DNA of 62,608 nucleotides, the filler included. It is 6 parts of 6 records of this genome, joined end to end, with 100 filler letters (N's around TTAATTAATTAA, not from the genome) between each part and the next. Parts side by side here need not be neighbours in the genome. Positions count along the whole stretch, not along the records: positions 45,429 to 57,431 come from SRR31147125_22716; 5 more parts are not named here. The stretch is one strand, 5' to 3'. Below the pieces are notes generated by a model. That model was not told where the DNA came from and did not search any database. It saw nothing but the letters and a program-made list of their open reading frames with translations. Position numbers and translations under genes: made by a program. Each line of letters opens with the position of its first letter. Positions within the stretch are counted from its first letter, which is position 1. Positions 7,431 through 57,531 of the stretch are shown in pieces.

Positions 7431-7449
7431 TAAAGTATCGAGGTGAAAA

Positions 7450-7746: not shown

Positions 7747-7747
7747 A

Positions 7748-8449
7748 ATGGATAATAGTCAGGTTGTTTTAATCACCGGAACCAGAAAGGGGATAGGCAA
7801 ATATCTAGCGCATTATTATGTCGAACAAGGATATCAGGTGATAGGCTGTAGCCGTAGTCCTGTCGAATATAAATTAAAAAATTATCAGCATTATACGCTG
7901 GATGTCTCTGATGAGAAAACAGTAAAACAGATGTTTTTAGACATAAAAAATAATTATAAAAAATGCGAGATTTTGATAAATAACGCTGGAATTGCATCGA
8001 TGAATCACGTGCTATTAACGCCTTTGACGACGATACACAAGATTTTAAATACCAATGTTGTTGGAACGTTTCTTTTTTGTCGGGAAGCCGCAAAGATAAT
8101 GCAAATGAATCGTTACGGAAGGATCGTCAACTTTTCAACCGTGGCAACCCCATTAAAACTTGAGGGTGAAGCTATCTACGCTGCTTCAAAAGCAGCCATT
8201 CTCTCTCTTACCGAGATCCTGGCTAGAGAATTTGCACCTTTTGGCATCACTGTAAATTCGGTCGGGCCAACACCTGTTGAAACAGATTTAATCAGATCTG
8301 TACCTCAGGATAAACTGGATAATTTACTCTCTCGCCAGGCGATAAAACGGTTTGGTCAATTTGAAGACATTGCCAATGTGATTGACTTTTTTATAAGAAA
8401 AGAAAGTCATTTTGTGACCGGGCAGAATATCTATTTAGGGGGAGTGTAA
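7748..8449 (+). CDS. SDR ketoreductase, FabG-like
   Basis: ITGTRKGIG, LINNAG, YAASK; ATG at 7748 follows the ACP stop. Confidence 0.88.
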   Translation: MDNSQVVLITGTRKGIGKYLAHYYVEQGYQVIGCSRSPVEYKLKNYQHYTLDVSDEKTVKQMFLDIKNNYKKCEILINNAGIASMNHVLLTPLTTIHKILNTNVVGTFLFCREAAKIMQMNRYGRIVNFSTVATPLKLEGEAIYAASKAAILSLTEILAREFAPFGITVNSVGPTPVETDLIRSVPQDKLDNLLSRQAIKRFGQFEDIANVIDFFIRKESHFVTGQNIYLGGV

Positions 8450-9847
8450 ATGAATATAAACCTGCTTATGGCAAGGTTGAAAGATTTTGAAAATAATGAT
8501 GCCATCATATATAAAAACAAAACATATTTGTATAAAGATATTCTCGAATTGATCACTCTATGGACAAAGAGACTTGAAAATAACAATATCACTCAAGGTT
8601 CTGTCGTAGCAGTGTCAGGAGATTACTCACCAGAGTCCATATCTTTGATTATAGCGCTCATTCTTAACAAGAATATTATTGTGCCATTAAGCCCGGGCCT
8701 GGGAAAATCCGGTCACAACTACCTGGATATCGCCAATGTGCAGCATATTATAAAACCTTTTAGCCGAGGCTGTCATATTATCAGTAAAAACAACATCGCT
8801 CCTGGAAATGAGCTTTTAAAAAGCCTGGTAGATCAGCAGCGGCCTGGATTAGTTTTGTTTACGTCCGGGTCTTCAGGAAAGCCGAAAGCGGTTCTGCATG
8901 ATTTCGATAAACTTTTGTCAAAATATACAAATGCCAATAAAAATTATATGACGCTCTGTTTCCTGATGTTTGATCACATCGCAGGAATAGATACATATTT
9001 TTATTGTCTTTACAGTGGTGGTACAGCTGTTTTGCCAACAAGTCGAAAGCCTAAAGACATATGCTTACAAATCGAAAAATTCAAGGTGGAGGTGCTTCCA
9101 ACATCACCCACGTTTCTGAACCTGTTACTTATATCGGAAGCATATAAAAATTATGATTTGTCCTCCTTAAAAATTGTGACATTCGGGTCTGAGAAAATGG
9201 CGAAATCTTTGTTAGACCGATTGGAACATCTTTTTCCAAATACACGATTTGTACAAAAATATGGCACAACAGAACTCGGTTCACCTCCATCGAAGACGTT
9301 AAAAGGTGATTCCACCTGGATCAAAATGAACAGTGAACATTTTAAATTAAAAGTTTGTGACGGAATACTATATGTAAAAACAGATTCTGCCATGCTCGGA
9401 TATCTCAATGCACCGAGCCCGTATACAAAAGATGGGTGGTTCAATACCGGTGACGCTGTTGAAGTGAATGGTGAATATATAAAAATATTAGGCCGTAAAT
9501 CTGAAATTATAAATGTAGGTGGCGAAAAAGTTTATCCTGCAGAAGTGGAATCAATCATTCAGGAATTGGATTATGTTGAAGATGTTCTTGTTTTTGGAGA
9601 GAAAAATCCCATTACCGGCAATATTGTATGTGCGGATGTGAAACTTGTCTGTGAGGACAATAGTGACGATTATAGCGTTAAAATTAAAAACCACTGCAGA
9701 AATAAACTCATAAACTATGCCGTACCAGTAAAGATTTTTTTATCACAAAAGAAATTATATAATGACAGGTTTAAAAAAAGAGATTATCCAAAAAGTGATG
9801 AATATGTTATTTTTTTTAAAATTCTTATTAAAAATTTAAGGATGTAA
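8450..9847 (+). CDS. AMP-dependent acyl-CoA/acyl-ACP ligase (ANL family)
   Basis: FTSGSSGKPKAV P-loop, YGTTE, WFNTGD, GRKSEIINVGGEKVYPAEVE. Confidence 0.9.
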   Translation: MNINLLMARLKDFENNDAIIYKNKTYLYKDILELITLWTKRLENNNITQGSVVAVSGDYSPESISLIIALILNKNIIVPLSPGLGKSGHNYLDIANVQHIIKPFSRGCHIISKNNIAPGNELLKSLVDQQRPGLVLFTSGSSGKPKAVLHDFDKLLSKYTNANKNYMTLCFLMFDHIAGIDTYFYCLYSGGTAVLPTSRKPKDICLQIEKFKVEVLPTSPTFLNLLLISEAYKNYDLSSLKIVTFGSEKMAKSLLDRLEHLFPNTRFVQKYGTTELGSPPSKTLKGDSTWIKMNSEHFKLKVCDGILYVKTDSAMLGYLNAPSPYTKDGWFNTGDAVEVNGEYIKILGRKSEIINVGGEKVYPAEVESIIQELDYVEDVLVFGEKNPITGNIVCADVKLVCEDNSDDYSVKIKNHCRNKLINYAVPVKIFLSQKKLYNDRFKKRDYPKSDEYVIFFKILIKNLRM

Positions 9848-16894: not shown

Positions 16895-16994
16895 NNNNNN
16901 NNNNNNNNNNNNNNNNNNNNNNNNNNNNNNNNNNNNNNTTAATTAATTAANNNNNNNNNNNNNNNNNNNNNNNNNNNNNNNNNNNNNNNNNNNN
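16895..16994. other. Artificial contig linker
   Basis: N44-TTAATTAATTAA-N44. Confidence 0.99.
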
Positions 16995-29922: not shown

Positions 29923-30022
29923 NNNNNNNNNNNNNNNNNNNNNNNNNNNNNNNNNNNNNNNNNNNNTTAATTAATTAANNNNNNNNNNNNNNNNNNNNNN
30001 NNNNNNNNNNNNNNNNNNNNNN
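29923..30022. other. Artificial contig linker
   Basis: N44-TTAATTAATTAA-N44. Confidence 0.99.
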
Positions 30023-35751: not shown

Positions 35752-35851
35752 NNNNNNNNNNNNNNNNNNNNNNNNNNNNNNNNNNNNNNNNNNNNTTAAT
35801 TAATTAANNNNNNNNNNNNNNNNNNNNNNNNNNNNNNNNNNNNNNNNNNNN
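35752..35851. other. Artificial contig linker
   Basis: N44-TTAATTAATTAA-N44. Confidence 0.99.
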
Positions 35852-44229: not shown

Positions 44230-45164
44230 TTAGTCATCAAAATCTTCATCTTTTAATTCGGCATATAACTTTTCAAGTCTTCTAAATCTATTTCTTATCC
44301 CGGATTTTGATATTCCTGCAATTTCAGCTACTTCTGTTAAGCTGCTTTCAGAATTTTCAAGTCTAATTTTTGCAGCCTCCTGCAATACCTCAGTTAAATT
44401 CTCTAAACCATATTCTTCGTCAATGAACTCAATCATTTTAATCTGCTTTTGCGCAGTATTTAGTGTTTTAGTTTCATTGGCTACTTCCCAGTTCATTTCC
44501 CGAATAGTCCTATTCTTTAAGTCCTTCATCATTGTAACTTCTTCATATTCAAAAAACAATCTCATAGCACCAATTAATACTAGTATATCCATTATATCCT
44601 CTGAATTTCTTAAATATACTAAATTTTTATTTCTTTTATGAGTTATAAATACTCTTTTCTCTCTTTTTTAAGTACATCATAAAGATCTTTTGCTGCTGAT
44701 TCACAATCAATAAAAAAATCTAGTGCATATTCTTTTTGTGGCTCTTTAATATAACCAGTTGCGAGAAATATTCCTCTGATATAACCTGCTATATCTGCAT
44801 CTCTTAATTCCTCTTCACTAGTAATCTCTACTGCCTCAGCATTTATATGATTATAGGCATTCTCTTCTAATCTTTTTATATACTCCTTAAAACCTTTTTG
44901 AAGAGGTATAAGCACTGTATAAACTCTATGCTCTCCGAAGTTTTTACTTATTGAATATTTGGTTGATATCTGCAAATCAGTATCTTCTGATAAAGTTTGA
45001 TAAAACCTTTTTGCCAGTGCCATATTTTCTAATTTAAGCTCTATTTTATTATCATAAATTGCATTTTTTGATTTAAGAATTGCGTAAATTTCAAGTTCTT
45101 TATCAAAATCTTCAGAAGGATGATTTAGAAGTATCTCCTCCTTAACGCGATTAGTATACGACAT
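44230..45164 (-). CDS. whiA: DNA-binding protein WhiA; frameshift near 44655
   Basis: MSYTNRVKEE, YIRGIFLATGYIKEP, NWEVANETKT, ISKSGIRNRFRRL. Confidence 0.9.
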
Positions 45165-45180
45165 TGTAACCTCCGCTATA

Positions 45181-45328
45181 TTATTTTGCTTCACTCCAGT
45201 TTTTTCCAGTAGCAGCATTTACTTCTAGTTTGACATTTTTAAGTTCTATTGTATCTTCCATTACTTTTTTGATAAATTCAGAATATTCTTCCACTTTATC
45301 ATCTTTAACTTCAAATATAAGTTCATCA
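45181..45328 (-). CDS. polA: DNA polymerase I C-terminus (5'-truncated; absent from the ORF track)
   Basis: DELIFEV...VMEDTIEL..VKLEVNAATGKNWSEAK*. Confidence 0.88.
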
Positions 45329-45428
45329 NNNNNNNNNNNNNNNNNNNNNNNNNNNNNNNNNNNNNNNNNNNNTTAATTAATTAANNNNNNNNNNNNNNNN
45401 NNNNNNNNNNNNNNNNNNNNNNNNNNNN
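45329..45428. other. Artificial contig linker
   Basis: N44-TTAATTAATTAA-N44. Confidence 0.99.
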
Positions 45429-45429
45429 C

Positions 45430-45669
45430 GAAAACAACGACAAATTCGCCATTCAGCGCGAATTGCCGAAGGTTGAAGACAACGATCTGCTGATCATCCA
45501 CGATACCGGCGCCCACGGCCACGCGATGGGATTTACCTACAACGGCAAGCTGCGGCCCCAGGAACTACTGCTCAGAGCTGATGGGACAGTCGAGCTGATC
45601 CGCCGGGCCGAATCATACGCGGATTATTTCGCCACCCTCGATTTTGAAGCAAGTGTCTACCGACCGTAG
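45430..45669 (+). CDS. lysA: Diaminopimelate decarboxylase C-terminus (5'-truncated)
   Basis: ENNDKFA, IHDTGAHGHAMGFTYNG, LIRRAES. Confidence 0.88.
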   Translation, partial: ENNDKFAIQRELPKVEDNDLLIIHDTGAHGHAMGFTYNGKLRPQELLLRADGTVELIRRAESYADYFATLDFEASVYRP

Positions 45670-45691
45670 AAATCGGTAATGCAGGCGGGGG

Positions 45692-46177
45692 TTATTCTAC
45701 CTCCGCCTTCTCTTTGGCCAGCTCTTCCGGGCCCATGGTCCAGAACGGCTTTCCATCGCTCGTCAGGCGCACCTTGAATGCGTAGTCGTTGTCCTTGCGG
45801 ATCTTGGCGGCCATGAAAATGGAATCATCACCGATATCCGCCCACACGCCCTTGACCTTCACCCAGTCACCCCGGCGCAAACCGGTTTCCCGTCCGGTTG
45901 CATACGATTCCGGGCATACGTGAACCACCACCTTGTCGCCGCTCCCCTCGTCGAGAATAAAGGCGGTTCCCGGGGCCATCCCCTTTATCGGTTCAACCGT
46001 AATGAACTTCATGATATCCCCGGTAATCGCATCACGCTCCTTCGGATCGTACAGGTCATTGTATTCCGAGTCGATTTCCCAACCGGTCACATCTCCGGCA
46101 GCCAGGGATTGAATCGGCACCAGCAGCAGAGCGGTGATCAGGGTACACACGGACAGTGCGCTGAAATATCTTTTCAT
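45692..46177 (-). CDS. Secreted small OB-fold-like protein
   Basis: Signal peptide; YDPK, VVHVCP, GDWVKVKG, MAAKI, DGKPFW pattern. Confidence 0.65.
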   Translation of the reverse strand: MKRYFSALSVCTLITALLLVPIQSLAAGDVTGWEIDSEYNDLYDPKERDAITGDIMKFITVEPIKGMAPGTAFILDEGSGDKVVVHVCPESYATGRETGLRRGDWVKVKGVWADIGDDSIFMAAKIRKDNDYAFKVRLTSDGKPFWTMGPEELAKEKAEVE

Positions 46178-46226
46178 GTTTCTCTCCATTATATCGTCAT
46201 TAATCAGGTCATGCCGAAACTGGATA

Positions 46227-46922
46227 TCAGTCTGCCAGCATGGCAGCCACCGCTTGCTCGGCATGAATCGCAGTCGTGTCGTAAAGTGGGATATCGCAAT
46301 CCTCTTGATCCAGCAGCAGTGCTATTTCCGTACAGCCGAGGATAATCGCCTCTGCCCCCTGCTCCTGCAACGAACCCACAACGCGACGATAAGCATCCCG
46401 CGACTCCGGTTCAATCCTGCCGAGACAGAGCTCCTTGAAAATCACCTCATCGACCATACGGCGATCCGGCCCGGACGGAATCAGGACCTCCATGGAGAAG
46501 CGATCCTCGAGGATGGAGCTGTAGAAGTTCTCCTCCATCGTAAATCTGGTGCCGAGCAGTCCGACCTTCCCGATTCCGTCAGCGGCAACGCGGCGACCGG
46601 TCGCATCGGCTATGTGAATCAGCGGTATCGAGATGGAACCGGCCACCTGGTCCGCCACCTTGTGCAGCGTGTTGGTACAGATCAGCATTAGCTCAGCACC
46701 CGCATGCTCGAGCCTCGCGGCCGCGCCACCGAGCACTCGCGCGGCCTCGTCCCACTGCCCCGCGCTCATCAGTGACTCAATCTCCGCGAAATCGACACTG
46801 TACATCAGGATTTTCGCGGAATGGAGGCCGCCACGCCGCTGCCGGACGCTTTCATTGAGCAGCCGGTAATACGTGCTCGTCGATTCCCAGCTCATGCCGC
46901 CGAGCAACCCTGCTGTTTTCAT
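46227..46922 (-). CDS. Aspartate/glutamate racemase family (YgeA/RacX-like)
   Basis: GLLGGMSWEST, ICTNTLH, LLGTRFTM, ILGCTEI. Confidence 0.94.
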   Translation of the reverse strand: MKTAGLLGGMSWESTSTYYRLLNESVRQRRGGLHSAKILMYSVDFAEIESLMSAGQWDEAARVLGGAAARLEHAGAELMLICTNTLHKVADQVAGSISIPLIHIADATGRRVAADGIGKVGLLGTRFTMEENFYSSILEDRFSMEVLIPSGPDRRMVDEVIFKELCLGRIEPESRDAYRRVVGSLQEQGAEAIILGCTEIALLLDQEDCDIPLYDTTAIHAEQAVAAMLAD

Positions 46923-46925
46923 CGG

Positions 46926-48077
<1,152 letters not shown>

Positions 48078-48213
48078 TCAATAGCAGATGAGTGCATAAA
48101 TCTCAAGCGCTTTACCGGTTCCCGCTCTGCATTGCAGTGCAAGTTCCCGACCGATCCATTATAGTGTGCTCGAATAACAGTAGACAGTAACAACAAAAAC
48201 ACCAGGAATATCC

Positions 48214-49551
48214 ATGTCGGTTTTAGCTGAAAACAGCGTCTATACCTCACTCAACCAGCAGGGACCGCTTGCCGCCCCCGATTCCGTGTCGGTAGAACGG
48301 TTGTGTTGTCGGCGGACCAGGGACTGGGTCACAGAGCTCAGGCAGAGCGAGTTAACTGTCACTAAATACCGGGCGGTACGAAGGCAGATTTTTGAATTTC
48401 TCAATATCACCAGTTTTCAGGACATCCCGCGCCTCCTGAGTGACGGGCCGGCCCGGGTAGACTGCAGCAGGCGCGCCTGCAGGCTTCTCGGGAACATGTT
48501 CGGAATCAGCGGCACCGAAGAGGAGATCCGCTATCGCGTGAACGAGTATTCCCGCACGGCGGACAGCGTCATCCGCTCGCTGCAGTCCAAGCTGTTCGCG
48601 CCGTACGCATCGCACGTGGCAATGACCAACGAGGTCGAGATAACAACCGACCCCGTGGATCTGCTGTTGATGGTGTTCGACAACCGCTATCATAAAAAAG
48701 CCCGCTTCGAAGCCCACCGCAAACTGTCGCTGATGAGCCTCGCGGGCAGTATCGACCAGCGGGAACGGGAAACCGGATCAGAAGATAAATTCGCGCAATT
48801 TCTCACTTTCCTCAACGACTACGTGTGGAGCGGCGACCAGAAAATCGGCGAACACGACATCGTCTATCTGCTCTCCCGGCACACCGGAGCTGATTTCTCA
48901 TGCTCCGATGTGTCCGTTATCAGAAAAGAGGACGTTCCGGATATTACGATGAAGCAGGGGCTCAAACTCACCCTGCTGAAGCGGCGGCGCTTCAAGGTCG
49001 GCAGACGGGAGCTGCCGATTTACGTGTCGATCCGCAAAAAGCCGCCCGAGGCGAAAGTGCTGAAACTGCTCCGCAAGAATGAGAAGAACCCGGCAGTCGC
49101 GGTCGATGACGAACTCGGCCTGATGGCGGTGCTCGACAGCGCCGCCGACGTGAAGATCTTCCAGAATCACCTCACCCAGAGCGCGAGCAACGCGGACTCG
49201 TTCATGATCCTTGAGGACATTTCCGACACCCTCACCAGTACCCTGCACAAGGCAACCTCCACCGGGTCGAGCACACAGACACCGATGCTCAAGTTCTTCG
49301 CACGGTTAGGCGGCATGCGGGTAGAGTTTATAATCCACACCAACCGCTCATGGCTGAACTACATGTACCAGCGGGACGTGGCACATGACGAATACGAGGT
49401 AAAACGGATTTTCGACTCGGGCGTCGCCGAACTGCTCTTCCCCTCCTCCATCTACTACCTGGACCACCAGTCGGTGCGCAACAACATGATCCGGTTGTTC
49501 AGGAAACAGATAGAGGAAGCCTGGAAATGGATGGAAAACGGAGCCGGGTGA
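48214..49551 (+). CDS. Hypothetical protein with divergent RelA/SpoT-like nucleotidyltransferase domain
   Basis: RKKPPEAKVLKLLRK, DDELGL, VEFIIHT, AHDEYEVKR in the order of RelA/SpoT synthetase motifs. Confidence 0.6.
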   Translation: MSVLAENSVYTSLNQQGPLAAPDSVSVERLCCRRTRDWVTELRQSELTVTKYRAVRRQIFEFLNITSFQDIPRLLSDGPARVDCSRRACRLLGNMFGISGTEEEIRYRVNEYSRTADSVIRSLQSKLFAPYASHVAMTNEVEITTDPVDLLLMVFDNRYHKKARFEAHRKLSLMSLAGSIDQRERETGSEDKFAQFLTFLNDYVWSGDQKIGEHDIVYLLSRHTGADFSCSDVSVIRKEDVPDITMKQGLKLTLLKRRRFKVGRRELPIYVSIRKKPPEAKVLKLLRKNEKNPAVAVDDELGLMAVLDSAADVKIFQNHLTQSASNADSFMILEDISDTLTSTLHKATSTGSSTQTPMLKFFARLGGMRVEFIIHTNRSWLNYMYQRDVAHDEYEVKRIFDSGVAELLFPSSIYYLDHQSVRNNMIRLFRKQIEEAWKWMENGAG

Positions 49552-49573
49552 CAGATTGAATTTTCCACCAAGA

Positions 49574-49625
49574 CCAGGGGACTGAATTTTTTCGCGTCCT
49601 GTGCGAAAATCATTCTGTCCCCGGG
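49574..49625. terminator. Long hairpin between convergent genes
   Basis: GGGGAC..GAAT.TTTTCGC / GCGAAAA..ATTC.GTCCCC. Confidence 0.6.
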
Positions 49626-49778
49626 AATGCTGGATGCCGCTGAAAAATGACCGCACCTGAACCATCCAGGTCGCGGGGGGTGCTGTCGAACAGCCCCTTG
49701 TTGAAATTATCGTGGGAATGATGGTGACAATGGATGAGTCCCGGTATCAGCAGACAATACCGTTTGTAATCACTATTT

Positions 49779-51002
49779 TCATACGATCACTGCCAGCAGA
49801 ATTTCAGCAGCCCTCGCAATATCCCCTGCATCAGAGAACTCCTCCGGGCAGTGACTCAACCCTTTGCGGCTTGGAACGAACAGCATTGCAGTAGGCGCGA
49901 CATTCGCCATGATTTTTGCGTCATGGCCGGCCCAACTGAAGACGGGAGTGACACCCTCTGCCCCGGTAGTCACAGTATGAAGCGTAGCAAGTGCAGTTTC
50001 ATCGAAATGTTTGACAGGAGTGAAGGCCTCCGGATCGATGGAGATGTGGAGACCGTTTTTCTCGGCAACGCCCCTGGCTTTCCTTCTGATCATCTCAAGA
50101 GCTGATACGACAGTATCGTTGTCATCTCCGCGCAACTCGATGACCACAGCCGCTTTTCCTGGAATCACATTATGCTGGTTCGGGTGAATATCAATTTTTC
50201 CGCAGGTTGCCACAAGCTTATCGGCCAGCTCACTACCAAGTCTTCGGGTTTCCAGCACAAGCTCCGCCATCGCCACCGAGGCATCAAAACGGTCCGCCAT
50301 TCTGGTAGTACCAGCATGATTGCTTTGTCCCGAAAAGACGATGCGATTGCGCATAATACCGACCACCCCCTGCACAATTCCGACGTTGTGGCCGGATTGT
50401 TCAAGCGTCATTCCCTGTTCGACATGTACTTCGTAGAAAGCGGCATAGTGTCCAACGGCCCAGCCATGATCCTCGCCGTAGCCAGATTTTTCAAAGGGAA
50501 GCGAGCCTGCAAGTTCAGCAAGGGTCTTGCCCCCGGTAATTGAGACCAGTGCATTCAACTGCTCAAGGGACGTGTTTCCGGTCATGTATTCACTCCCCAG
50601 GCAGCCTTTACCAAAAACCCCGCCCTCCTCTTCTGCAAAGGCGATTATCTCGACAGGGCTTATAGGGGGCGTCCGTGACTCCTGTAAACACTCGATCAGT
50701 TCGAGCCCGACAACGATTCCCATTGCGCCATCGAAGGCACCCCCATCGGCAACAGTATCGATGTGTGAACCGATGCCAATCGGAGACAGTTCCGAGCCCA
50801 GCGGATCATAACGACCGATGAGATTGCCGAAACCGTCGATGCGGATGACCATACCCAGTTCGACCATCGCTTCTATCAGATAGCCAATGGCATCATTGAA
50901 CGCGGGGGTATAGGTTCTGCGTGTGCATTGCCCCTCAACACCGGTAAAAGCTGCAAGCTGCTGTATCCGTGTTCTGATCCTGTCTGGGCTAGGTGTTTTC
51001 AT
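49779..51002 (-). CDS. N-carbamoyl-amino acid/allantoate amidohydrolase (M20 family)
   Basis: GSHIDTV..GGAFDG, EEEG, EVHVEQG, GQSNHAGTT, AGHDA, GLSHCPEE. Confidence 0.92.
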   Translation of the reverse strand: MKTPSPDRIRTRIQQLAAFTGVEGQCTRRTYTPAFNDAIGYLIEAMVELGMVIRIDGFGNLIGRYDPLGSELSPIGIGSHIDTVADGGAFDGAMGIVVGLELIECLQESRTPPISPVEIIAFAEEEGGVFGKGCLGSEYMTGNTSLEQLNALVSITGGKTLAELAGSLPFEKSGYGEDHGWAVGHYAAFYEVHVEQGMTLEQSGHNVGIVQGVVGIMRNRIVFSGQSNHAGTTRMADRFDASVAMAELVLETRRLGSELADKLVATCGKIDIHPNQHNVIPGKAAVVIELRGDDNDTVVSALEMIRRKARGVAEKNGLHISIDPEAFTPVKHFDETALATLHTVTTGAEGVTPVFSWAGHDAKIMANVAPTAMLFVPSRKGLSHCPEEFSDAGDIARAAEILLAVIV

Positions 51003-51037
51003 AATGTATAAACCTGAAATATTGAATTAATATCCGA

Positions 51038-51200
51038 TTACACTGCACCGCCATTAACAGGCGCCACAAAGCTTCCGAAACCTGATTTTACCGCTAACCT
51101 GCCATCATCGTAGACCGTCTCCCCCCGTACCAGGGTTGCGGCAGATGGAACCGGCAATCTCCATACCATGATACGGACTCGACCCCGCCAAAGAATGCTA
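51038..51200 (-). pseudogene. C-terminal remnant of a cyclic amidohydrolase (hydantoinase/allantoinase/dihydroorotase-like)
   Basis: HSLAGSSPYHGMEIAG [frameshift] ATLVRGETVYDDG...GFGSFV..*. Confidence 0.75.
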
Positions 51201-51209
51201 CATTTCTTC

Positions 51210-51442
51210 CATGCAGTGGCAGAATCCTTCTTTCATATGCTGAAGACATAGCTCCTTTATCACAATAAGTTTCTGATCCGACAGGAAGTCGAGCAAGAGT
51301 TATTCAGCTCTATTGAAGTCTACCACAATCGCAGGCAAAGACATCCAACCAACGGCAGCAAATCCCCTGTCTCATATGGGGTAGAGTGGAGAAAATGCAA
51401 AATGTTGTTTAACCGACTATTCAACTAAATGGGAGAAGACCA
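51210..51442 (+). mobile_element. IS3-family remnant: transposase C-terminus plus right end
   Basis: AVAESFFHMLKT*LLYH...IEVYHNRRQRH...SP, followed by IR-like ...CAACTAAATGGGAGAAGACCA. Confidence 0.82.
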
Positions 51443-51543
51443 GCTCAGTCACAATAACAACGAGAACAGGAGCGAATCGAAAATCATTCTCGGCTGTCAG
51501 GTCCTGGCATCTGCGGCGCAAACCGCGCTCTCGTGGTTCGGGA

Positions 51544-52667
51544 TCAGGCCCTGACTGTATCGTTGAGCGTCAGGATCGAAACCAGGAAATCCACTCCCAG
51601 CTCAAGCTCTGCCAGCGGGATCGATTCAGCGGCAGAATGAGGGTCTTCTATACCAAGCCCGAGCGCGACACAGTCAAGCCCTTTACCATTGAACACGTTG
51701 GCATCGAGACCTCCCCCGAAGCCCACATGACGGGTTCGATATTGAGGGAATCGGCCGCTTTTTTAGCGCGCAGCACAGCGGGGTGATCTTCCGGGATATT
51801 GAAGGACCTGAACGCATAATTTTTCGAGAACTCGAGCTTAGCACCGAATTCCCCGGCCGCTTTTTGAAATGACTCAATCACTTTGTCGACTTCCTGCTCG
51901 AGCTTTTCATCCTCACCGCTTCGCACCTCGACATTTACCTCCGCCCGATCCGCCACGATGTTTCGCAGCTCACCACCCTTTATCATGCCGAAATTGGAAG
52001 TCGTTTCTTCGTCTATCCGGCCCGATTTCACTCCGGCGATTGCCGTCGCAGCGGTGACAATGGCATTGATCCCAGCTTCCGGTTCGATACCGGCATGCGC
52101 AGCTTTGCCATGTAAGGTGAAATCAAGGTCGATCTTTGCAGGAGCCTTATTGATGATCGTGCCGACCGGCCCATCTCCATCGAGAATGTACCCGTACGCT
52201 GCGTTGAGATCGGCCTTCAGGTGCGTAGCCCCGAACAGCCCCGGTTCCTCCTGGACCGTGAATACTACTTCGATGGCGCCATGCTCCCGTTTCTCTGCAA
52301 GAATTCGTTCAATAGCCGTTATGATAACCGCGATTCCGGCCTTGTCGTCTGCGCCCAGCACCGTTTCACCATTGCTGTAGATTACGCCGTCGCGCACTTC
52401 AGGAACCATATCTTCAGTCGGACCGACGGTATCCATGTGTGAACATAACATCACAATAGGCGCTGACGGGTCGGTACCGTTGAAACGGGCAATCAGGTTA
52501 CCCGTATCGCTGCCGGTCAGATGAGCAGAATCATCCCGGGTGACATCGCCCCCCATGTCCCTGAGCCGTGTTTCAAGCAGGTTGGCAAGGCTCCCCTCCC
52601 TGCCGATATAGCTGTCCATTGAGGCAAGAGTTACAAACAGTTCCTGTACCGGGCTCGCATTACTCAT
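51544..52667 (-). CDS. Peptidase T-like M20 metallopeptidase; frameshift in the C-run at 51713-51717
   Basis: SHMDTV, LGADDKAG, VQEE.GL.GA, AAHAGIEPEAG; restored SGGGLDAN...H..E. Confidence 0.9.
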
Positions 52668-52700
52668 CGATTTTCAATCCTGATAGTATTTTAAAGTGGC

Positions 52701-53699
52701 TCATGGGGTCTCAACAGCATGGCAGGCAACCAGTTCATCACCAAATGAGACCCGCTTCGGCAGTTCTTTTTTACACACGTCCGACGCATATGGGCAGCGA
52801 GGATGAAACACGCAGCCGGATGGCGGGTTCATCGGGTTCGGAACCTCTCCGGCCATTGGCAAACGTTCCCGGTTGCTCATAGAAAGGTCGGGCAGGGTTT
52901 CAAGCAGCAGTTTCGTATACGGATGCCGGGGGGCTTGAAAAATGGTTATCGCGTCGGCAAGTTCACAGAGATGCCCCAAATACATGACGCCAACCCTGGT
53001 GGCGATGTGATGAACGACGGCCAGGTCATGGGTAATCAGCATATATGACAACCCCATCTTATTCTGGAGACGTTTCATGAGATTGAGAATCTGGGCCTGC
53101 ACGGACACATCAAGTGCCGATGTCGGTTCATCGCACACAACAAATTCGGGCCTTGTAGCGAGTGCCCGGGCAATTGCTATGCGCTGCCGCTGCCCTCCAG
53201 AGAACTCATGGGGATAATTGTACGCATCATTTTCACCGAGACCAACCTGCTTGAGCAGGGTGAACACCCGTTCCTGGATTTCCCTGCTGGTTTTCATGGT
53301 CCCGAACGATTTGATCGGTTCAGCGACAATGCTCATCACCCGCCAGCGGGGATTGAGACTGGCAAACGGATCCTGAAAGATCATCTGGGTTCGTCTGCGA
53401 TACTCATTAATGTCTGGTCGGGAAGACAACTGGGCAATGTCAACTCCGTCGAATTCAATGACCCCTGTGGTCGGCTTTTCAAGACCGACGAGCATCCGGG
53501 CAACCGTCGTTTTACCACAACCCGACTCACCTACGAGCGCAAACGTTTCACCCTGCCTGATATCGAAATCAATTCCCTGGACCGCCTTGACATACATGCG
53601 TTTCTTTCGCTCGATAATCCGGTTGAGCAGGGGTGGGGATACGTCAAAATGCCTGGTCAGATTTCTCGCTTTGATCAACGGAAGGTTACTCATTTTCAC
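52701..53699 (-). CDS. Peptide ABC transporter ATPase (DppF/OppF)
   Basis: GESGCGKT, FSGGQRQR, DEPTSALD, GCVFHPRCP. Confidence 0.95.
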   Translation of the reverse strand: MKMSNLPLIKARNLTRHFDVSPPLLNRIIERKKRMYVKAVQGIDFDIRQGETFALVGESGCGKTTVARMLVGLEKPTTGVIEFDGVDIAQLSSRPDINEYRRRTQMIFQDPFASLNPRWRVMSIVAEPIKSFGTMKTSREIQERVFTLLKQVGLGENDAYNYPHEFSGGQRQRIAIARALATRPEFVVCDEPTSALDVSVQAQILNLMKRLQNKMGLSYMLITHDLAVVHHIATRVGVMYLGHLCELADAITIFQAPRHPYTKLLLETLPDLSMSNRERLPMAGEVPNPMNPPSGCVFHPRCPYASDVCKKELPKRVSFGDELVACHAVETP

Positions 53700-54669
53700 C
53701 CTCCTTCATAGACACCAGCCAACAGGCAGCCTGGGATCGCCCGCTCTTGATCAGATACGGCCGCTCGATGCAGCATTTTTCCATTGCATGGGGACATCTC
53801 GGATGAAACGAGCACCCGTCGGGTATCTCATTTAACCGGGGCATCGCACCGTCTATCTGGGTAAGCCACTCGACCTCATGATCAAGCGACGGTATGGAAG
53901 CCATAAGACCGACTGTGTACGGGTGGTGGGGACGCCTGATGACATCCTCGACCGGTCCGATCTCGATAATTCGGCCGGCGTACATGACCGCAACCCTGTC
54001 CGCTGTTTCAGCGATAACCCCCATGTCATGGGTTATCAGCATGACAGCTGTCTGATGCTCGCGGCATAACCTTTTCAACAGTCCGATGATCTGTGCCTGA
54101 ATGGACACATCAAGGGCCGTTGTCGGCTCATCGGCAATGACGAGCCGTGGGTTCGCGCAGAGAGCCAGCGCAATGACCACCCGCTGTCTCATTCCGCCTG
54201 AAAACTGATGAGGATAGTGATCAATCCGCTCCCCGGCGGCCGGCAAACCGACCTCCTTAAGGAGATCAATAGCCTGCTTTTTCGCCTCTTCCCTGCTCAT
54301 AGGCTGGTGAGTCGTAATTGTTTCGACCAGTTGTCGACCAATTGTGTATAACGGATTAAGACTGGTCAACGGATCCTGGAATATCGCCCCGATTCGTTTG
54401 CCCCTTATTCGCCGCAGTTCCTCGTAGCTAAGGTTGTCGATACGCTCTCCCTCGAGTTCTATGGTGCCCTGCCCCACATAAAGCGGGGGCTCAAGTAGTC
54501 CGGTAATTGCTGCCCCGGTTAGAGATTTACCGGCTCCTGATTCACCGACGACGCCTAACACTTCCCCAGATCCGATGGAAATGTTCAGATCGTCAACAGC
54601 GGTAAGCAGCCCTTTCCGAGTGGGAAGCATGACCTTGAGGCCCTGCACATTAAGCAATTGTTCTGTCAT
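53686..54669 (-). CDS. Peptide ABC transporter ATPase (DppD/OppD)
   Basis: GESGAGKS, FSGGMRQR, DEPTTALD. Confidence 0.95.
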   Translation of the reverse strand: MTEQLLNVQGLKVMLPTRKGLLTAVDDLNISIGSGEVLGVVGESGAGKSLTGAAITGLLEPPLYVGQGTIELEGERIDNLSYEELRRIRGKRIGAIFQDPLTSLNPLYTIGRQLVETITTHQPMSREEAKKQAIDLLKEVGLPAAGERIDHYPHQFSGGMRQRVVIALALCANPRLVIADEPTTALDVSIQAQIIGLLKRLCREHQTAVMLITHDMGVIAETADRVAVMYAGRIIEIGPVEDVIRRPHHPYTVGLMASIPSLDHEVEWLTQIDGAMPRLNEIPDGCSFHPRCPHAMEKCCIERPYLIKSGRSQAACWLVSMKEGENE

Positions 54670-55592
54670 TAGCGCAATTTCGGATTGAACGCATCGCGCA
54701 TCCAATCCCCTAAAAGATTTACAGCGAGCACCAGCGTTGCAAGCGCAACACCAGGAAATACGGTTATCCACCACTCACCGGAAAACAGGTAATCGTTACC
54801 GATCCGTATCATTGTCCCCAGAGACGGCTCCGTCGGCGGAATACCGACCCCCAGAAACGACAATGTAGCCTCGAGAATAATTGCCAATGCAAGATTGATG
54901 GTCGTGATAACAAGAACCGGCCCCATGACGTTGGGCAGCACATGAAATGTCATAATTGCAGCCGGGTGCCTGCCCGCCACATGTGCGGCTTCCACATATG
55001 CCTTCTCCAGTTCGACGACAGTTGAAGCACGGACGGTTCGAGCATACTGCGGCCAGAATGAAACACCGATGGAGAAAATAACAACGTAGATCGCCATCGC
55101 CTCAGCTTCATAGACGTTCATGACGCCACGACTGATACCATCTACCATCAACGCCACGAGAATGGCCGGAAACGTAAGCTGAACCTCTGCAATTCTCATT
55201 ATCAGCGTATCTATCCTGCCACCGGAAAAGCCGCTGATGAGCCCAAGTGCCGTTCCGAGGATGCCCGAAAAGACGACGGCGGCAAATCCCACCCCCAGCG
55301 ACAGACGCGACCCCCAGATTATGGTGGACAGGATGCCTCTGCCCTGGTCGTCGGTGCCCAGCAGGAATCTCGAATCACCACCTTCCAACCATGCCGGGGG
55401 GTAAAACGCATCCATCAGTGACAGGCTGGTCAGATCATAAGAATCATGCGGCGCAATCCACGGAGCCAATAATGTCGCACCAATATAAGTAACAGTTACG
55501 ATTGCCGCGACAACCGTTACCGGGGACCGGATAAAGCTATAAAAAATATCAGAATCCGTGATCCGATAATATTGTTTAATTATGTAAGTCAA
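54669..55592 (-). CDS. Peptide ABC transporter permease (DppC/OppC); start uncertain
   Basis: LGTDDQGR, YVEAA EAA loop, LSFLGVG, GDWMRDAFNP. Confidence 0.92.
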   Translation of the reverse strand: MTYIIKQYYRITDSDIFYSFIRSPVTVVAAIVTVTYIGATLLAPWIAPHDSYDLTSLSLMDAFYPPAWLEGGDSRFLLGTDDQGRGILSTIIWGSRLSLGVGFAAVVFSGILGTALGLISGFSGGRIDTLIMRIAEVQLTFPAILVALMVDGISRGVMNVYEAEAMAIYVVIFSIGVSFWPQYARTVRASTVVELEKAYVEAAHVAGRHPAAIMTFHVLPNVMGPVLVITTINLALAIILEATLSFLGVGIPPTEPSLGTMIRIGNDYLFSGEWWITVFPGVALATLVLAVNLLGDWMRDAFNPKLR

Positions 55593-55650
55593 CGTATCAA
55601 GCCCTCGACAACTTTGTTCGTAAATCCTCTCTGCCCCGGTCTGCCGAAAA

Positions 55651-56631
55651 TTATGTCGCCAGATTTCCTTCCGTACGGAGGCGCGGGTCAACAACATAGT
55701 AGAGAAAATCGACGATGAGATTGATGACAACGAAAATCAGCGCTACCAGTACCAGATATGCGCCCATCACCGGCAAATCGACTCGCTGTACCGCCTGCAG
55801 AAACAGATACCCCATTCCCGGCCATTGAAACACCGTCTCAGTGATAATCGAATATGCAATGATTTGACCAAGTTGAAGTCCGGTAACGGTGATGACCGGA
55901 ACCAGAGTATTTTTCAGTGCATGGCCGAAATTGACCGTCCTGTTGGTCAGACCGCGCGCACGGGCGAACTTGATGTAGTCAGTTCTCAGAACCTCGAGCA
56001 TCTCGGAACGCACCAGGCGCATAATCAGGGTCATCTGGAACAATCCCAGTGTAATGGCCGGCAGGATCAACGAAAGCAGACCGCTTACGCTGAGAAAACC
56101 GGTGGACCAGAAACCGATGTGCCTGATCTCCCCTCTGCCCATTGACGGCAGCCAGCCAAGAATAACCGCAAACAGGTATATAAGCAGAATACCGACGAGA
56201 AACGGCGGCAGTGATATGCCAACGAGCGACACCGACTGAAAGACTTTGCTTAAAAAACCATCCTTGTGAAGGCCTGAATAAACCCCCATGAAAACGCCAA
56301 CAACCAATGCAAAGAGACCGGACACGAAGCTCAGCTCAAGGGTTGCCGGAGCCCGTTCGGCAATCAGGTCAATCACCGGGCGACGCTGCTCGTAGGAAAG
56401 ACCGAAATCTCCCATTGACGCATTCTTCACAAACCGCCCGAACTGGATAATTACAGGGTCGTTCAACCCCAGTGTTTCACGTAATTGCTCCCGCTCTTCA
56501 AAGGTGGTATCCCTACCGACCATGCTGACGACAGGATCACCGATATAGCGAAACAACACGAATGAGAGCAGCGCAACCATCAACATTACTACGATGGACT
56601 GCAGCAGTCTTCTGATAAAAAAAGCTATCAT
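55651..56631 (-). CDS. Peptide ABC transporter permease (DppB/OppB)
   Basis: GDFGLS, PATLEL, DYIKFARARGL, ETVFQWPGMG. Confidence 0.95.
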   Translation of the reverse strand: MIAFFIRRLLQSIVVMLMVALLSFVLFRYIGDPVVSMVGRDTTFEEREQLRETLGLNDPVIIQFGRFVKNASMGDFGLSYEQRRPVIDLIAERAPATLELSFVSGLFALVVGVFMGVYSGLHKDGFLSKVFQSVSLVGISLPPFLVGILLIYLFAVILGWLPSMGRGEIRHIGFWSTGFLSVSGLLSLILPAITLGLFQMTLIMRLVRSEMLEVLRTDYIKFARARGLTNRTVNFGHALKNTLVPVITVTGLQLGQIIAYSIITETVFQWPGMGYLFLQAVQRVDLPVMGAYLVLVALIFVVINLIVDFLYYVVDPRLRTEGNLAT

Positions 56632-56648
56632 CTGGCTGTGTTCTCCGG

Positions 56649-56678
56649 CCGGGGGGATCCGGATTGGATTCCCCCGGC
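56649..56678. terminator. Intercistronic GC-rich stem-loop after the substrate-binding protein gene
   Basis: GCCGGGGGGATCC / GGATTCCCCCGGC. Confidence 0.7.
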
Positions 56679-56701
56679 ATCAGAATAGAGGTGGCTGATA
56701 C

Positions 56702-57430
56702 TTATTTCTTGACGACCCAGCGCAGGCTGAGTGTATTGTCAGCTGATTGATGGAGCTCGACTTCATCGCTGGTACCCCAGCTCAAAGCCTGCTGATGCAG
56801 TGGGATGTGGCCAACATCTTCTTTATGGATGGTCATCATTTTATCGATGATTGCTTGACGCTTGGCAGGATCAATTTCAGATGTCATATCGACAAGAAGC
56901 TTGTCAATTTCCGGGTTTGAGTAGTTACCACAGTTCCAGTTACCCTGGCCCGGCAACGGATTATCGACAGTCTGGCTGTTGGTCATGACGTTGCTGTAGT
57001 ACGTGTTGTGCACGTCAAAGCTCATCGGTGCCCAGCCCAGCAAGTAAAAACTTGTATCCATCGACGCGATTTTAGCAAAATGCTTCGATCTCGTCTGAGC
57101 GTTCAGTTTACACTCGATGCCGACCTTGGTAAGCATCGCCGCAACAGCCTGGGAAATCGCTTCGTCATTTACGTAGCGATCGTTGGGGGTATCGAGAACG
57201 ATGGAAAAGCCGTCGGGATAACCCGCCTCAGCAAGCAGTTTTTTAGATGCTTCCGGATCGTACGGAAAACGCTCGTTGAGTTCCTCATTGAAGCCGTTGA
57301 TATTCGACCCGATCATCAAAGCCGTCGGCCAACTGGCGCCGCGCATGATCTTCTTCTTGATTGCCTCCATGTCGATCGCCTGATACATCGCCTTCCGAAC
57401 ACGTACATCCTGGAGCGGGTTTTTCCCCTT
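56702..57430 (-). CDS. Peptide ABC transporter substrate-binding protein (family 5), 5'-truncated
   Basis: NPLQDVRVRKAMYQAID, YDPEASKKLLAEAGYPDGF, PNDRYVND. Confidence 0.93.
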   Translation of the reverse strand, partial: KGKNPLQDVRVRKAMYQAIDMEAIKKKIMRGASWPTALMIGSNINGFNEELNERFPYDPEASKKLLAEAGYPDGFSIVLDTPNDRYVNDEAISQAVAAMLTKVGIECKLNAQTRSKHFAKIASMDTSFYLLGWAPMSFDVHNTYYSNVMTNSQTVDNPLPGQGNWNCGNYSNPEIDKLLVDMTSEIDPAKRQAIIDKMMTIHKEDVGHIPLHQQALSWGTSDEVELHQSADNTLSLRWVVKK

Positions 57431-57431
57431 T

Positions 57432-57531
57432 NNNNNNNNNNNNNNNNNNNNNNNNNNNNNNNNNNNNNNNNNNNNTTAATTAATTAANNNNNNNNNNNNN
57501 NNNNNNNNNNNNNNNNNNNNNNNNNNNNNNN
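57432..57531. other. Artificial contig linker
   Basis: N44-TTAATTAATTAA-N44. Confidence 0.99.

Follow-up and report, generated by a model that had tools for sequence, protein, structure and literature searches.

RSH enzymes, of the RelA/SpoT superfamily, are central starvation-signalling enzymes of bacteria, and censuses of them rest on HMMs. In their synthetase domains a G-loop, GYxSxH, stacks the guanine of GDP or GTP, and in the bifunctional Rel an HD domain is the hydrolase part that degrades the product. The described systems closest to the protein considered here are the small alarmone synthetases (SAS) RelP and RelQ; the long bifunctional enzymes Rel, SpoT, and RshD; the toxSAS enzymes CapRel, FaRel2, and Tas1, of which the first two add pyrophosphate to tRNA at its 3'-CCA end; and the uncharacterised families TIGR04552 and TIGR04562, found in Myxococcota, Syntrophia, and Bdellovibrio. 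On TIGR04552 a literature search found bare mentions, with no description.

To these may be added a family that goes undetected by Pfam and NCBIfam, yet occurs in roughly three of every four genomes sampled from one sulfur-cycling order. The published RSH census seems not to include it, judging by the entry for Desulfofustis glycolicus, assumed to carry the gene, which gives RshD and Rel only (Jimmy et al. 2020, Dataset S1). A literature search found no description of a RelA-SpoT family tied to the nitrogenase of Desulfobulbales-type bacteria, and, among the papers listed, nothing relevant on an alarmone synthetase together with nif. I think it fairly probable that the member studied here is a soluble two-domain enzyme from an unclassified, deeply diverged RSH branch, combining a family-specific helical N-terminus with a pyrophosphokinase core that may act on a non-canonical acceptor. 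If active, it would be a new branch of the RSH superfamily with a new acceptor site. Because the gene adjoins PII, AmtB, NifA-like, and nifHDK genes in relatives, it would also, for most of the order, connect nucleotide signalling with nitrogen-fixation control in a way that can be tested.

The gene (P0001) lies within a window of 62,608 nucleotides, the whole stretch of DNA that was analysed, in these surroundings:

46926..48032, minus strand: Fe-ADH family gene, divergently transcribed, upstream of the RSH-like gene (PF00465, 85 bits)
48033..48213, no strand: divergent intergenic region of 181 nt between the Fe-ADH and RSH-like genes; presumed promoters
48214..49551, plus strand: gene for the divergent RSH-like protein, 445 aa, ATG start (ORF, translation)
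49564..49634, no strand: hairpin between the convergent RSH-like and M20 genes (minimum free energy -31.4 kcal/mol, z -3.27)
49779-51002, minus strand: M20 amidohydrolase gene, convergent, downstream of the RSH-like gene (ORF and domain)

The 445-aa ORF claimed in the preliminary description is present, with AGGA 8-11 nt 5' of its ATG. A consensus scan found no sigma-70-like site within the intergenic region, the sole match (47931-47960) falling inside the Fe-ADH gene. Also as claimed, no antitoxin-like gene adjoins it: the upstream gene is divergent, the downstream gene convergent, and the ORFs of the window include no small co-directional one beside it. The upstream neighbour had been named kdnB. 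A divergent gene of the Fe-ADH family it is, but kdnB is no more than a putative name for it: there is no equivalog-level NCBIfam match and no KdnB-named model among the 12 matches. The mosaic GC of the window was considered as a sign of horizontal transfer or chimera and rejected; it is only apparent, because the window consists of separate contigs joined by N spacers.

Within the protein, conservation was counted over 58 aligned homologues, whose identity to it is 23-83%. Its features, all on the plus strand, are:

48310..48825: family-specific, all-helical N-terminal domain, residues ~33-204 (model secondary structure, conservation)
48856..49536: RSH-synthetase-like (Pol-beta-type) catalytic domain, residues ~215-441 (Foldseek, VIA-align)
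49033..49077: motif 1, R274-x-K276...K284-x-x-R287-K288 (conservation, register with RSH structures)
49105..49119: motif 2, D298-D299-x-x-G302, here D298-D-E-L-G-L (D299 in 58/58, G302 in 56/58)
49264..49293: family-specific loop plus strand, G351-S-S...K360, where GYxSxH would stand (conservation, hhalign)
49324..49341: motif 4, E371-F-I-I-H-T376, counterpart of ExQxRT (E371 in 58/58, T376 in 53/58)
49384..49407: motif 5, H391-x-E393-Y394...R398, counterpart of the RSH H..Y(K) (conservation)

The motifs stand where they had been placed beforehand: R274-K-K-PPEAKVLKLLRK begins at 49033, motif 2 at 49105, V370-E-F-I-I-H-T at 49321, and A390-H-D-E-Y at 49381. Their order, RxK...KxxRK, DxxG, E....T, H..Y, is that of RelP and RelQ; agreement with the order in RelA/SpoT synthetase domains had been claimed. 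Four residues (K276, K284, D299, and E371) are invariant in all 58 homologues, and others nearly so; the same four are kept in all 18 sequences of a set that includes fused and extended forms. The motifs are thus not a matter of chance. Conservation of the Asp and Glu had been set beforehand as a test, and both D299 and E371 are without exception in the two sets.

The residues that bind donor ATP and Mg2+ in RelP, RelQ, and Rel are conserved: R274, K276, K284, R287/K288, D299, and E371. Motif 1 would correspond to the motif with which RSH synthetases bind the phosphate/adenine of the donor ATP. It lines up without shift on the RxKxxxSxxxKxxR of both 2be3 and 6fgk, and its positions are kept in 56 (R274), 58 (K276), 58 (K284), 54 (R287), and 50 (K288) of the homologues. 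The Ser of RxKxxxSxxxKxxRK is more often A (22/58) than S (18/58). Motif 2 aligns to the DxxG of the same two structures and of the canonical RSH proteins from host genomes, and D299 is the predicted Mg2+-binding Asp. The R of the canonical DxxGxR is mostly lost (M304 in the window protein; M in 34/58, R in 7/58). In motif 4, E371 is the predicted catalytic Glu; the Q of ExQxRT is replaced by I in 34/58 (I373 here) and kept as Q in 9/58, and its R by H in 36/58 (H375 here). Motif 5 aligns to SHxxYKxR of TIGR04552 and is kept in 51 (H391), 50 (E393), 50 (Y394, with F in 8 more), and 58 (R398) homologues.

The predicted fold points the same way as the motifs. The AF2 model of the 445-aa protein is a confident one (pLDDT 90.7, pTM 0.89), and a Foldseek search of the PDB gave 15 matches at E<=1e-3, the best being 6fgx (E 2.7e-4, probability 1.00). 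All of the 30 matches listed are RSH synthetases (RelP, RelQ, SpoT, CapRel, Rel) save CoaE at rank 39. VIA-align, run over 48,161 chains and independent of Foldseek, returned RSH proteins in all of its best nine rows (Z 9.3 to 7.3), led by 6fgk (Z 9.3), 6ewz (9.2), and 6yxa (9.0), which span model residues 174-433. Since Z 7-8 is common for models with no true match, the best Z of 9.3 should be read as modestly higher than background; generic Pol-beta nucleotidyltransferases lie at about Z 5. By group, RelP and RelQ (6ewz, 6fgx, 6fgk, 5ded, 2be3) have the same catalytic-core fold at Z 9.3-8.2 and Foldseek probability 1.00, the long enzymes share the synthetase core at Z 9.0 (6yxa) and 8.2 (7qps), and toxSAS enzymes match at Z 7.3 (7ztb) and 5.9 (6ox6).

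Comparisons of sequence are fainter. A profile of the 58 homologues found as its two best PDB sequences the RelQ-type 2be3 (E 0.035) and RelP 6fgk (E 0.074), and hhalign against 11 canonical RSH domains from host genomes gave E 3.5e-4 across the three core motifs. An atlas lookup by way of the homologue P0006 led to a RelA_SpoT cluster (score 0.92). The window protein by itself produced no PF04607 match at E<=10 in a Pfam scan, only DUF5660 at E 0.14; nothing at E<=10 in NCBIfam, TIGR04552 included; and only GSTs (E 0.3-1.6) in a phmmer search of the PDB. Among 61 divergent relatives, PF04607 matches 10 at E<=0.01, in the same region and with a best score of 24.4 bits; none of the 61 reaches its gathering threshold of 27 bits. 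Taken together, fold and motifs support the assignment made in the preliminary description, that the protein is a divergent member of the RSH synthetase superfamily with a Pol-beta-like fold. Such a fold, too, had been named beforehand as a test, and the predicted structure passes it.

A resemblance to TIGR04552 had also been suggested, and it is weakly supported. Against a profile of 24 TIGR04552 sequences the family aligns over 224 collinear columns (query 118-405 / 66-336), the N-terminal helices included, at E 3.2e-4; the probability is 39%, profile-profile probabilities against canonical RSH and TIGR04552 being 37-39%. The alignment weakens to E 0.03 with a single TIGR04552 sequence and 0.015 with four near-identical ones. 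In the divergent relatives, TIGR04552 or TIGR04562 matches 14/61 at E<=0.01 (best 28.4 bits), and no family member among the 61 reaches their cut-offs (125 / 140 bits). TIGR04552 and TIGR04562 are themselves RSH-like and undetected by default; against canonical RSH they give probability 85% and E 5.8e-6, and many of their members carry PF04607. TIGR04552, like the present family, is without GYxSxH. It differs in its shorter proteins (~350 aa), in having EFQIVD and D-x-x-R-F-R where the window family has E-x-I-x-H-T and D-x-x-G, and in its taxa: a match occurs in 2/201 genomes of the phylum sample, only one of them a true member. The collinearity hints, weakly, at kinship.

What sets the protein apart from RelP and RelQ, besides its being undetected by PF04607 and its loss of GYxSxH and of the Q and R of ExQxRT, is some 200 extra N-terminal residues, which make up a helical domain unlike any known fold. 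This domain contains DPVDLLL (residues 146-152) and IDQRE (180-184); PVDLLL and RFEAxRKLxLM are conserved, with L150, E166, A167, R169, and K170 at >=90%. Folded alone it reached pLDDT 86.2, and searches with that model gave as their best VIA-align hit RbcX (Z 6.8) and as their best Foldseek match one at E 1.6. The possibility that it is a degenerate HD domain is unsupported, the HD protein 2paq appearing only at rank 18 with VIA Z 4.2. As had been claimed, no HD hydrolase domain is detectable, and at most a deep remnant of one may persist: none was found by the structure search with the N-terminal domain, and Pfam gives no HD, HD_4, TGS, ACT, or RIS domain in the window protein. RelP and RelQ share the lack of HD, TGS, and ACT, while the long RSH enzymes differ in having HD_4, TGS, ACT, and RIS, the N-terminal domain here not being recognisably HD.

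The question of the acceptor turns on the G-loop. The absence of GY(Q/R)SxH had been claimed in the preliminary description, and in the 58 homologues the aligned positions have no conserved Tyr or His. Residues 349-361 read STGSSTQTPMLKF, and hhalign, against both canonical RSH and TIGR04552, sets G351-S-S...M-x-K360-F-F opposite the GYxSxH strand. The replacement is itself conserved (G351 in 45, S352 in 45, S353 in 46, and K360 in 52 of 58), and model pLDDT drops to 72-83 there. This loop is the presumed acceptor site.

It may be that the loop means little, that it is drift in an ordinary small alarmone synthetase which turns GTP/GDP or ATP/ADP into (p)ppGpp or (p)ppApp. RSH enzymes accept G or A nucleotides, the nearest structures are the (p)ppGpp-making RelP and RelQ, the donor-side residues are all kept, and the VIA fold matches include Tas1 as well as 8vx3, an exported SAS from Streptomyces. 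But G351-S-S and K360 are conserved, which speaks for selection of another binding mode. The family-specific N-terminal domain is also conserved, and each host genome already has 2-5 PF04607 proteins. An ordinary synthetase is therefore unlikely, though it deserves to be taken seriously.

Gene neighbourhoods offer clues to function of two kinds, depending on how far one looks. In the window's clade the family gene is adjoined only by the divergent Fe-ADH gene, found in 17/18 close loci. Order-wide it is found in only 6/30 loci, and so the idea of Fe-ADH as a family-wide functional partner was rejected. Nothing in the 18 close loci corresponds to the window genes 3' of the RSH-like gene (M20 amidohydrolases, a Dpp/Opp transporter), apart from generic 27-37% ABC matches in 3/18. 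The 30 order-wide loci are different: a class-I GATase lies upstream in 14, while a small membrane protein, of 126-131 aa, is present in 9 and a NifV-like gene in 13. Full loci of relatives run glnK-amtB, GATase, family gene, (TM), nifV-like, nifA-like, nifH-nifI1-nifI2-nifDK. Where the family gene and nifH share a contig (34 pairs), their distance is at most 10 kb in 18 pairs and at most 25 kb in 26, an association inflated by shared ancestry and incomplete genomes; 44/201 genomes have the family without nifH.

The window has none of the GATase, small-TM, and NifV-like genes, and in 17 close loci none was seen at a distance of up to 8 kb. Five genomes of the clade gave merely 32-35% matches to a GATase query, in 3/5, and no match to a small-TM query. 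The nitrogen context belongs to more distant relatives only, not to the window's locus, and as judged from the sequences of these loci, the gene in the window's clade is alone, its nif and GATase context lost.

Relatives have PII genes in their context, and elsewhere among bacteria a Pol-beta-fold enzyme, GlnD, modifies PII proteins. Might this protein, too, be an NMP transferase of the wider Pol-beta superfamily, in the style of MenT, GlnD/GlnE, or a CD-NTase, that adenylylates or uridylylates some protein, RNA, or small molecule, a nitrogen regulator perhaps? Its core also matches MenT1 (Z 6.6), TdT (6.2), TENT5 (5.9), and CdnE (5.2). I consider this improbable, as RSH entries clearly outrank generic Pol-beta proteins in VIA-align, the RSH-typical RxK...KxxRK is conserved, and sequence-level matches are to RSH only.

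For the family as a whole, a search at E<=1e-3 gave 1283 homologues, and clustering at 50% identity gave 240 clusters. In its home order the family is nearly core: the gene was found in 155/201 sampled Desulfobulbales-type genomes, in most of them once, at 56-98% identity across the order. A canonical long RSH is present besides in every one of the five host genomes examined. Such facts bear on whether the protein could be a toxSAS-like effector, halting growth by pyrophosphorylating the tRNA 3'-CCA end or some other macromolecule. CapRel (7ztb, Foldseek E 9e-4) is indeed among the fold matches, toxSAS enzymes likewise diverge in the acceptor region, and with them the family may share an acceptor other than a guanine nucleotide. 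But toxSAS genes come with what is missing here: no antitoxin or immunity gene adjoins, there is no defence-island context, and PADLOC has no match for the window protein. A near-core, mostly single-copy gene of high identity and conserved synteny shows the pattern of vertical inheritance, not that of a mobile toxin-antitoxin system. An effector of this kind is quite improbable, and for the same reasons, together with the canonical RSH present besides, a housekeeping or regulatory role seems more likely than that of a toxin.

A catalytically dead pseudo-enzyme, serving as a nucleotide-binding sensor or scaffold, would explain the loss of the Q/R of ExQxRT, the R of DxxGxR, and the G-loop, and inactive domains do occur in the superfamily (the RelA HD domain is one instance; PMC3153485), but it is very improbable, an invariant Mg-binding Asp and catalytic Glu in 58 sequences down to 23% identity being unexpected once catalysis is lost.

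I return then to a pyrophosphokinase with a non-canonical acceptor. The protein would bind ATP-Mg and pass the beta,gamma-pyrophosphate on to an acceptor that resembles a nucleotide, at one of its hydroxyls, so that a nucleotide messenger with a 3'-pyrophosphate results. Since a conserved loop, GSS...K360, stands in for the guanine-stacking GYxSxH, binding of the acceptor probably differs from that of GDP/GTP, and the acceptor may be other than a guanine nucleotide. With the Q/R of ExQxRT, the R of DxxGxR, and the G-loop not kept, pyrophosphoryl transfer itself I can only infer. The product would act as a regulatory signal, tied, if relatives are a guide, to nitrogen status in most of the order.

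Fused forms fit this idea. A C-terminal NUDIX domain scores above the Pfam cut-off in 9/61 divergent relatives, and a PRTase-like stretch (NF006613) occurs in 5/61, its best E of 2e-10 being below cut-off. Such fusions are rare (with P0205 as query, only 4 proteins were found), and they would suit a small nucleotide product degradable by a NUDIX hydrolase, recalling the synthetase-plus-hydrolase logic of the long RSH enzymes. One may go further and suppose that the product is an undescribed pyrophosphorylated nucleotide, other than one made from GDP/GTP, that reports glutamine/nitrogen status in Desulfobulbales; that the enzyme works with a dedicated GATase-like partner and the small membrane protein beside glnK-amtB and nifH-nifI1-nifI2-nifDK in most of the order; that the fused NUDIX degrades the product in rare relatives; and that in the lineage of the window the enzyme was retained but uncoupled from nif. 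So detailed a scheme I offer tentatively, and it is doubtful as a whole.

Downstream of the gene, the hairpin at 49564..49634 is likely a terminator common to the RSH-like and M20 genes. None of 200 shuffles was equally stable, and Rfam gave nothing at E<=1 across 47900-49900, hairpin included. At its core lies a short repeat of the dispersed kind: contigs from four runs share 49570-49623 or break there. Among the 8 runs listed none is of RNA, which speaks neither for nor against expression. As for the gene itself, three sequencing runs, with 6-11% of sampled words present, contain pieces of it that are 90-95% alike.

The reading frame at 48214-49551 on the forward strand is present as first described. 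It begins with ATG, with AGGA 8-11 nt 5' of the start, and encodes 445 amino acids. Every motif that the preliminary description picked out can be found in the translation where it was said to be.

Motifs in the translation of 48214-49551 (forward strand)
49033, R274-K-K-PPEAKVLKLLRK
49105, D298-D-E-L-G-L
49321, V370-E-F-I-I-H-T
49381, A390-H-D-E-Y
residues 349-361, STGSSTQTPMLKF
residues 146-152, DPVDLLL
residues 180-184, IDQRE

Direct searches with the protein find nothing in Pfam except DUF5660 at E 0.14, no NCBIfam match at E<=10, and nothing relevant amongst PDB sequences. There is no shortage of homologues: 1283 at E<=1e-3 in a 90%-clustered protein collection, the best 120 of which are 66-98% identical to the target and, where named, are each a 'hypothetical protein' of Desulfofustis or Desulfobulbaceae MAGs. 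A library clustered at 50% yields 240 clusters at E<=1e-3, of which 106 reach E<=1e-30. When 61 divergent full-length relatives were scanned against family models, 14 matched TIGR04552/TIGR04562 (best 28.4 bits, cut-offs 125/140) and 10 matched PF04607 RelA_SpoT (best 24.4 bits, cut-off 27), all below threshold and all on one common stretch of the protein. A profile made from 58 homologues (23-83% identical to the target) has as its top two PDB sequences the small alarmone synthetases 2be3 (E 0.035) and 6fgk (E 0.074), with which it is in register over RxKxxxSxxxKxxR...DxxG. Aligned by hhalign with 11 canonical RelA/SpoT homologue (RSH) domains from the host genomes, the same profile gives E 3.5e-4 and a probability of 37%, over three core motifs.

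The predicted structure points the same way. An AlphaFold2 model that took the 58-homologue alignment as input (pLDDT 90.7, pTM 0.89) consists of helices at 33-204, a beta/alpha core at 215-376, and C-terminal helices to 441. Foldseek finds 15 PDB matches at E<=1e-3, and among the 30 matches listed all are RSH synthetases (RelP, RelQ, SpoT, CapRel, Rel) save CoaE, at rank 39. VIA-align, which works independently of Foldseek and was run on all 48,161 representatives, puts RSH proteins in each of its top nine places (6fgk, Z 9.3; 6ewz, 9.2; 6yxa, 9.0; 7qps, 8.2; 5dec, 8.2; 8acu, 7.8; 5l3p, 7.5; 8vx3, 7.4; 7ztb, 7.3), followed by generic Pol-beta nucleotidyltransferases at about Z 5; values of 7-8 are common for models that have no true match, so 9.3 alone is modest. 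The assignment of the fold, which is as had been claimed, is convincing because both aligners agree with the sequence profiles and with the conservation of motifs.

Six residues are invariant in the 58 homologues: K276, K284, D299, E371, R398, and P410, amongst them the Asp and the Glu singled out beforehand. Others are nearly so: R274 (56/58), R287 (54), K288 (50), G302 (56), T376 (53), H391 (51), E393 (50), and Y394 (50, with F in another 8). K276, K284, D299, and E371 do not vary in a second set either, 18 sequences with fused and N-terminally extended forms among them. The position of the Arg in DxxGxR is M304 in the target (R in 7/58 only), and those of Q and R in ExQxRT are I373 and H375. 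The GYxSxH G-loop is absent, as had been noted, and the whole loop is replaced by one that is conserved in its own right (G351, 45/58; S352, 45; S353, 46; K360, 52).

The best reading of the target is that it is an active RSH-type enzyme, a prediction favoured by the fold and by the fully conserved set of donor/Mg residues. Against it, no curated model reaches its threshold, profile-profile probabilities for the family lie below 40%, and several canonical residues have been lost. I propose that such an enzyme would differ from canonical RSH proteins in its acceptor or its mode of regulation, because the acceptor loop is replaced yet conserved and there is a conserved extra domain. The N-terminal domain folded alone (pLDDT 86.2) matches no known fold, with a best Foldseek E of 1.6 and a best VIA-align Z of 6.8 (RbcX), far under the level that is meaningful for helical bundles. 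No HD domain is detectable in it, in keeping with the earlier claim (the sole HD-family row is 2paq, Z 4.2, rank 18); it may harbor a deep HD remnant.

The protein had been likened to TIGR04552. A weak, collinear similarity is seen; the family is not a member, none of the 61 relatives scanned reaching the cut-off. The alignment of a 24-sequence TIGR04552 profile with canonical RSH proteins (hhalign probability 85%, E 5.8e-6), together with a precomputed PF04607 match on many TIGR04552 proteins, indicates that TIGR04552, annotated as uncharacterised, is by sequence comparison itself RSH-like, with the variants EFQIVD and D-x-x-R-F-R in its catalytic motifs. A true member (locus L067, outside the window; 256 bits) itself matches PF04607 below threshold. 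It is one of only two TIGR04552 matches in 201 genomes sampled from the phylum, and the second (L068) had to be rejected, being a canonical long RSH with HD_4, RelA_SpoT, TGS, and ACT, whose synthetase domain the model cross-matches. Against the target family the TIGR04552 profile gives a probability of 39% and E 3.2e-4, collinear through 224 columns (query 118-405 against 66-336) with the N-terminal helices included. The family may be a distant sister of TIGR04552. In the literature searched, TIGR04552 turns up as a bare mention only, and neither the combination of alarmone synthetase with nif nor that of RelA-SpoT with Desulfobulb and nitrogenase leads to an account of the target family.

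That the target is a toxin is argued against by its wide vertical conservation, single copy per genome, lack of an adjacent antitoxin (as stated at the outset), and lack of a PADLOC match.

The family gene occurs in 155/201 genomes sampled from the order of the window's clade (E<=1e-10), mostly as a single copy. Five genomes of that clade each also have a canonical long RSH and one to four further PF04607 matches. Dataset S1 of Jimmy et al. 2020 (PMC7229694) lists RshD and Rel only for Desulfofustis glycolicus and PbcSpo2, RshD, and Rel for Desulfotalea psychrophila. So far as these entries go, they suggest that the census missed the target family, provided the listed strains carry the gene. 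One genome of the clade, G001, has a second copy (locus L033, G001:C1:5674000-5690000, at 6023-9231; 452 aa, 54% identical), divergent from a 351-aa PF04607 SAS-like gene. Next in line are genes for a DUF3124 protein, a GAF-ANTAR regulator, and a protein with a glutamate-synthase domain; upstream lie genes for CuyA, a transporter like DctA, and a GntR regulator.

In 18 loci from the window's clade (family protein 55-83% identical), the divergent Fe-ADH gene is found in 17, the racemase gene in 15, and beside it the gene of a 190-aa protein in 13; no window gene 3' of the target is found in any.

45692-46264, reverse strand, 190-aa protein with a hydrophobic N-terminal stretch; no match in Pfam, NCBIfam, or PADLOC

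Fe-ADH appears in only 6 of 30 loci drawn from across the order, all with a family protein at least 66% identical to the target, and its adjacency is read as lineage synteny rather than partnership. The preliminary description was right that this neighbor is divergent, and the name kdnB that it used finds no backing: none of its 12 NCBIfam matches is a KdnB-named model and none is at equivalog level, the best being SarD (112 bits, cut-off 700).

More distant relatives keep different company. Of the 30 order-wide loci, 14 carry, just upstream and on the same strand, a gene for a glutamine amidotransferase of class I (GATase), 13 have a NifV-like homocitrate synthase (TIGR02660, 342-367 bits, under the cut-off of 462.9), and nine have a gene for a predicted membrane protein, without PADLOC match, that starts right at the stop of the family gene or overlaps it.

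Membrane protein of 126-131 aa in nif-linked relatives
L041, 2807-3187
L054, 2792-3187
7 other loci

One full locus reads glnK, amtB, GATase, family gene, (membrane protein), nifV-like, nifA-like, nifH-nifI1-nifI2-nifD-nifK; another reads GATase, family gene, then nifH-nifI1-nifI2-nifDK. Across the same 201 genomes of the order, the family gene and nifH occur together in 111, the family gene without nifH in 44, nifH without the family gene in 15, and neither in 31. Shared ancestry and incomplete genomes inflate the Fisher odds ratio of 5.2, and the co-occurrence is suggestive only. Where the two share a contig, 18/34 pairs lie within 10 kb and 26/34 within 25 kb.

Nine of the 61 divergent relatives, 576-742 aa long, end in a NUDIX domain that scores above the Pfam cut-off.

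NUDIX-fused family proteins
P0190, P0194, P0200, P0205, P0218, P0227, P0230, P0248, P0267

Most of these have a PRTase-like stretch ahead of NUDIX; such a stretch (NF006613) is seen in 5/61 relatives, its best E of 2e-10 falling under the cut-off. Fused forms are rare, with P0205 as query finding only 4 proteins. By analogy, they are possibly a synthetase-plus-hydrolase architecture with NUDIX in the place of HD. The NUDIX and PRTase fusions and the nif/PII/Amt/GATase context point to a product that, in these relatives, would be a small nucleotide acting as a regulatory signal and linked to nitrogen status. The window's lineage lacks that context. Of five clade genomes, all have the family gene and three have nifH above cut-off; a GATase query finds 32-35% matches only, in three, and the small membrane protein query finds nothing. 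The window's clade has lost the nif/GATase context.

Gene neighborhoods cannot be read across the window's five spacers, because they join separate contigs.

Spacers, each N44 + TTAATTAATTAA + N44
16895-16994
29923-30022
35752-35851
45329-45428
57432-57531

Sharp switches in GC coincide with them (contigs of 27-39% and 45-57%), and the DNA comes from at least two organisms. The target's contig comprises 12,003 nt (45429-57431); the remaining window is unrelated low-GC DNA. In sequencing run X1, which contains 0.96 of the words sampled and is probably the source, one contig matches 45429-49583 exactly and a second spans 50243-57431 and extends further. A strong hairpin follows the target gene; its core, 49570-49623, is found again in several further contigs from four runs, and assemblies break at it.

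49564-49634, hairpin in the gap between the target gene and the M20 gene convergent with it (-31.4 kcal/mol, z -3.27); no Rfam match
56702-57388, reverse strand, SBP_bac_5 solute-binding gene, beginning at profile position 225 of 368

The hairpin is a dispersed, REP-like repeat or else a terminator that the two genes share. The SBP_bac_5 gene is incomplete owing to the contig end at 57431, not biology; the X1 contig continues about 2.4 kb past that end. On a low-GC contig, WhiA is seemingly split into two reading frames (44230-45218, reverse strand), which may be a frameshift or sequencing error.

44643-45218, reverse strand, LAGLIDADG_WhiA (N-terminal part)
44230-44592, reverse strand, HTH_WhiA
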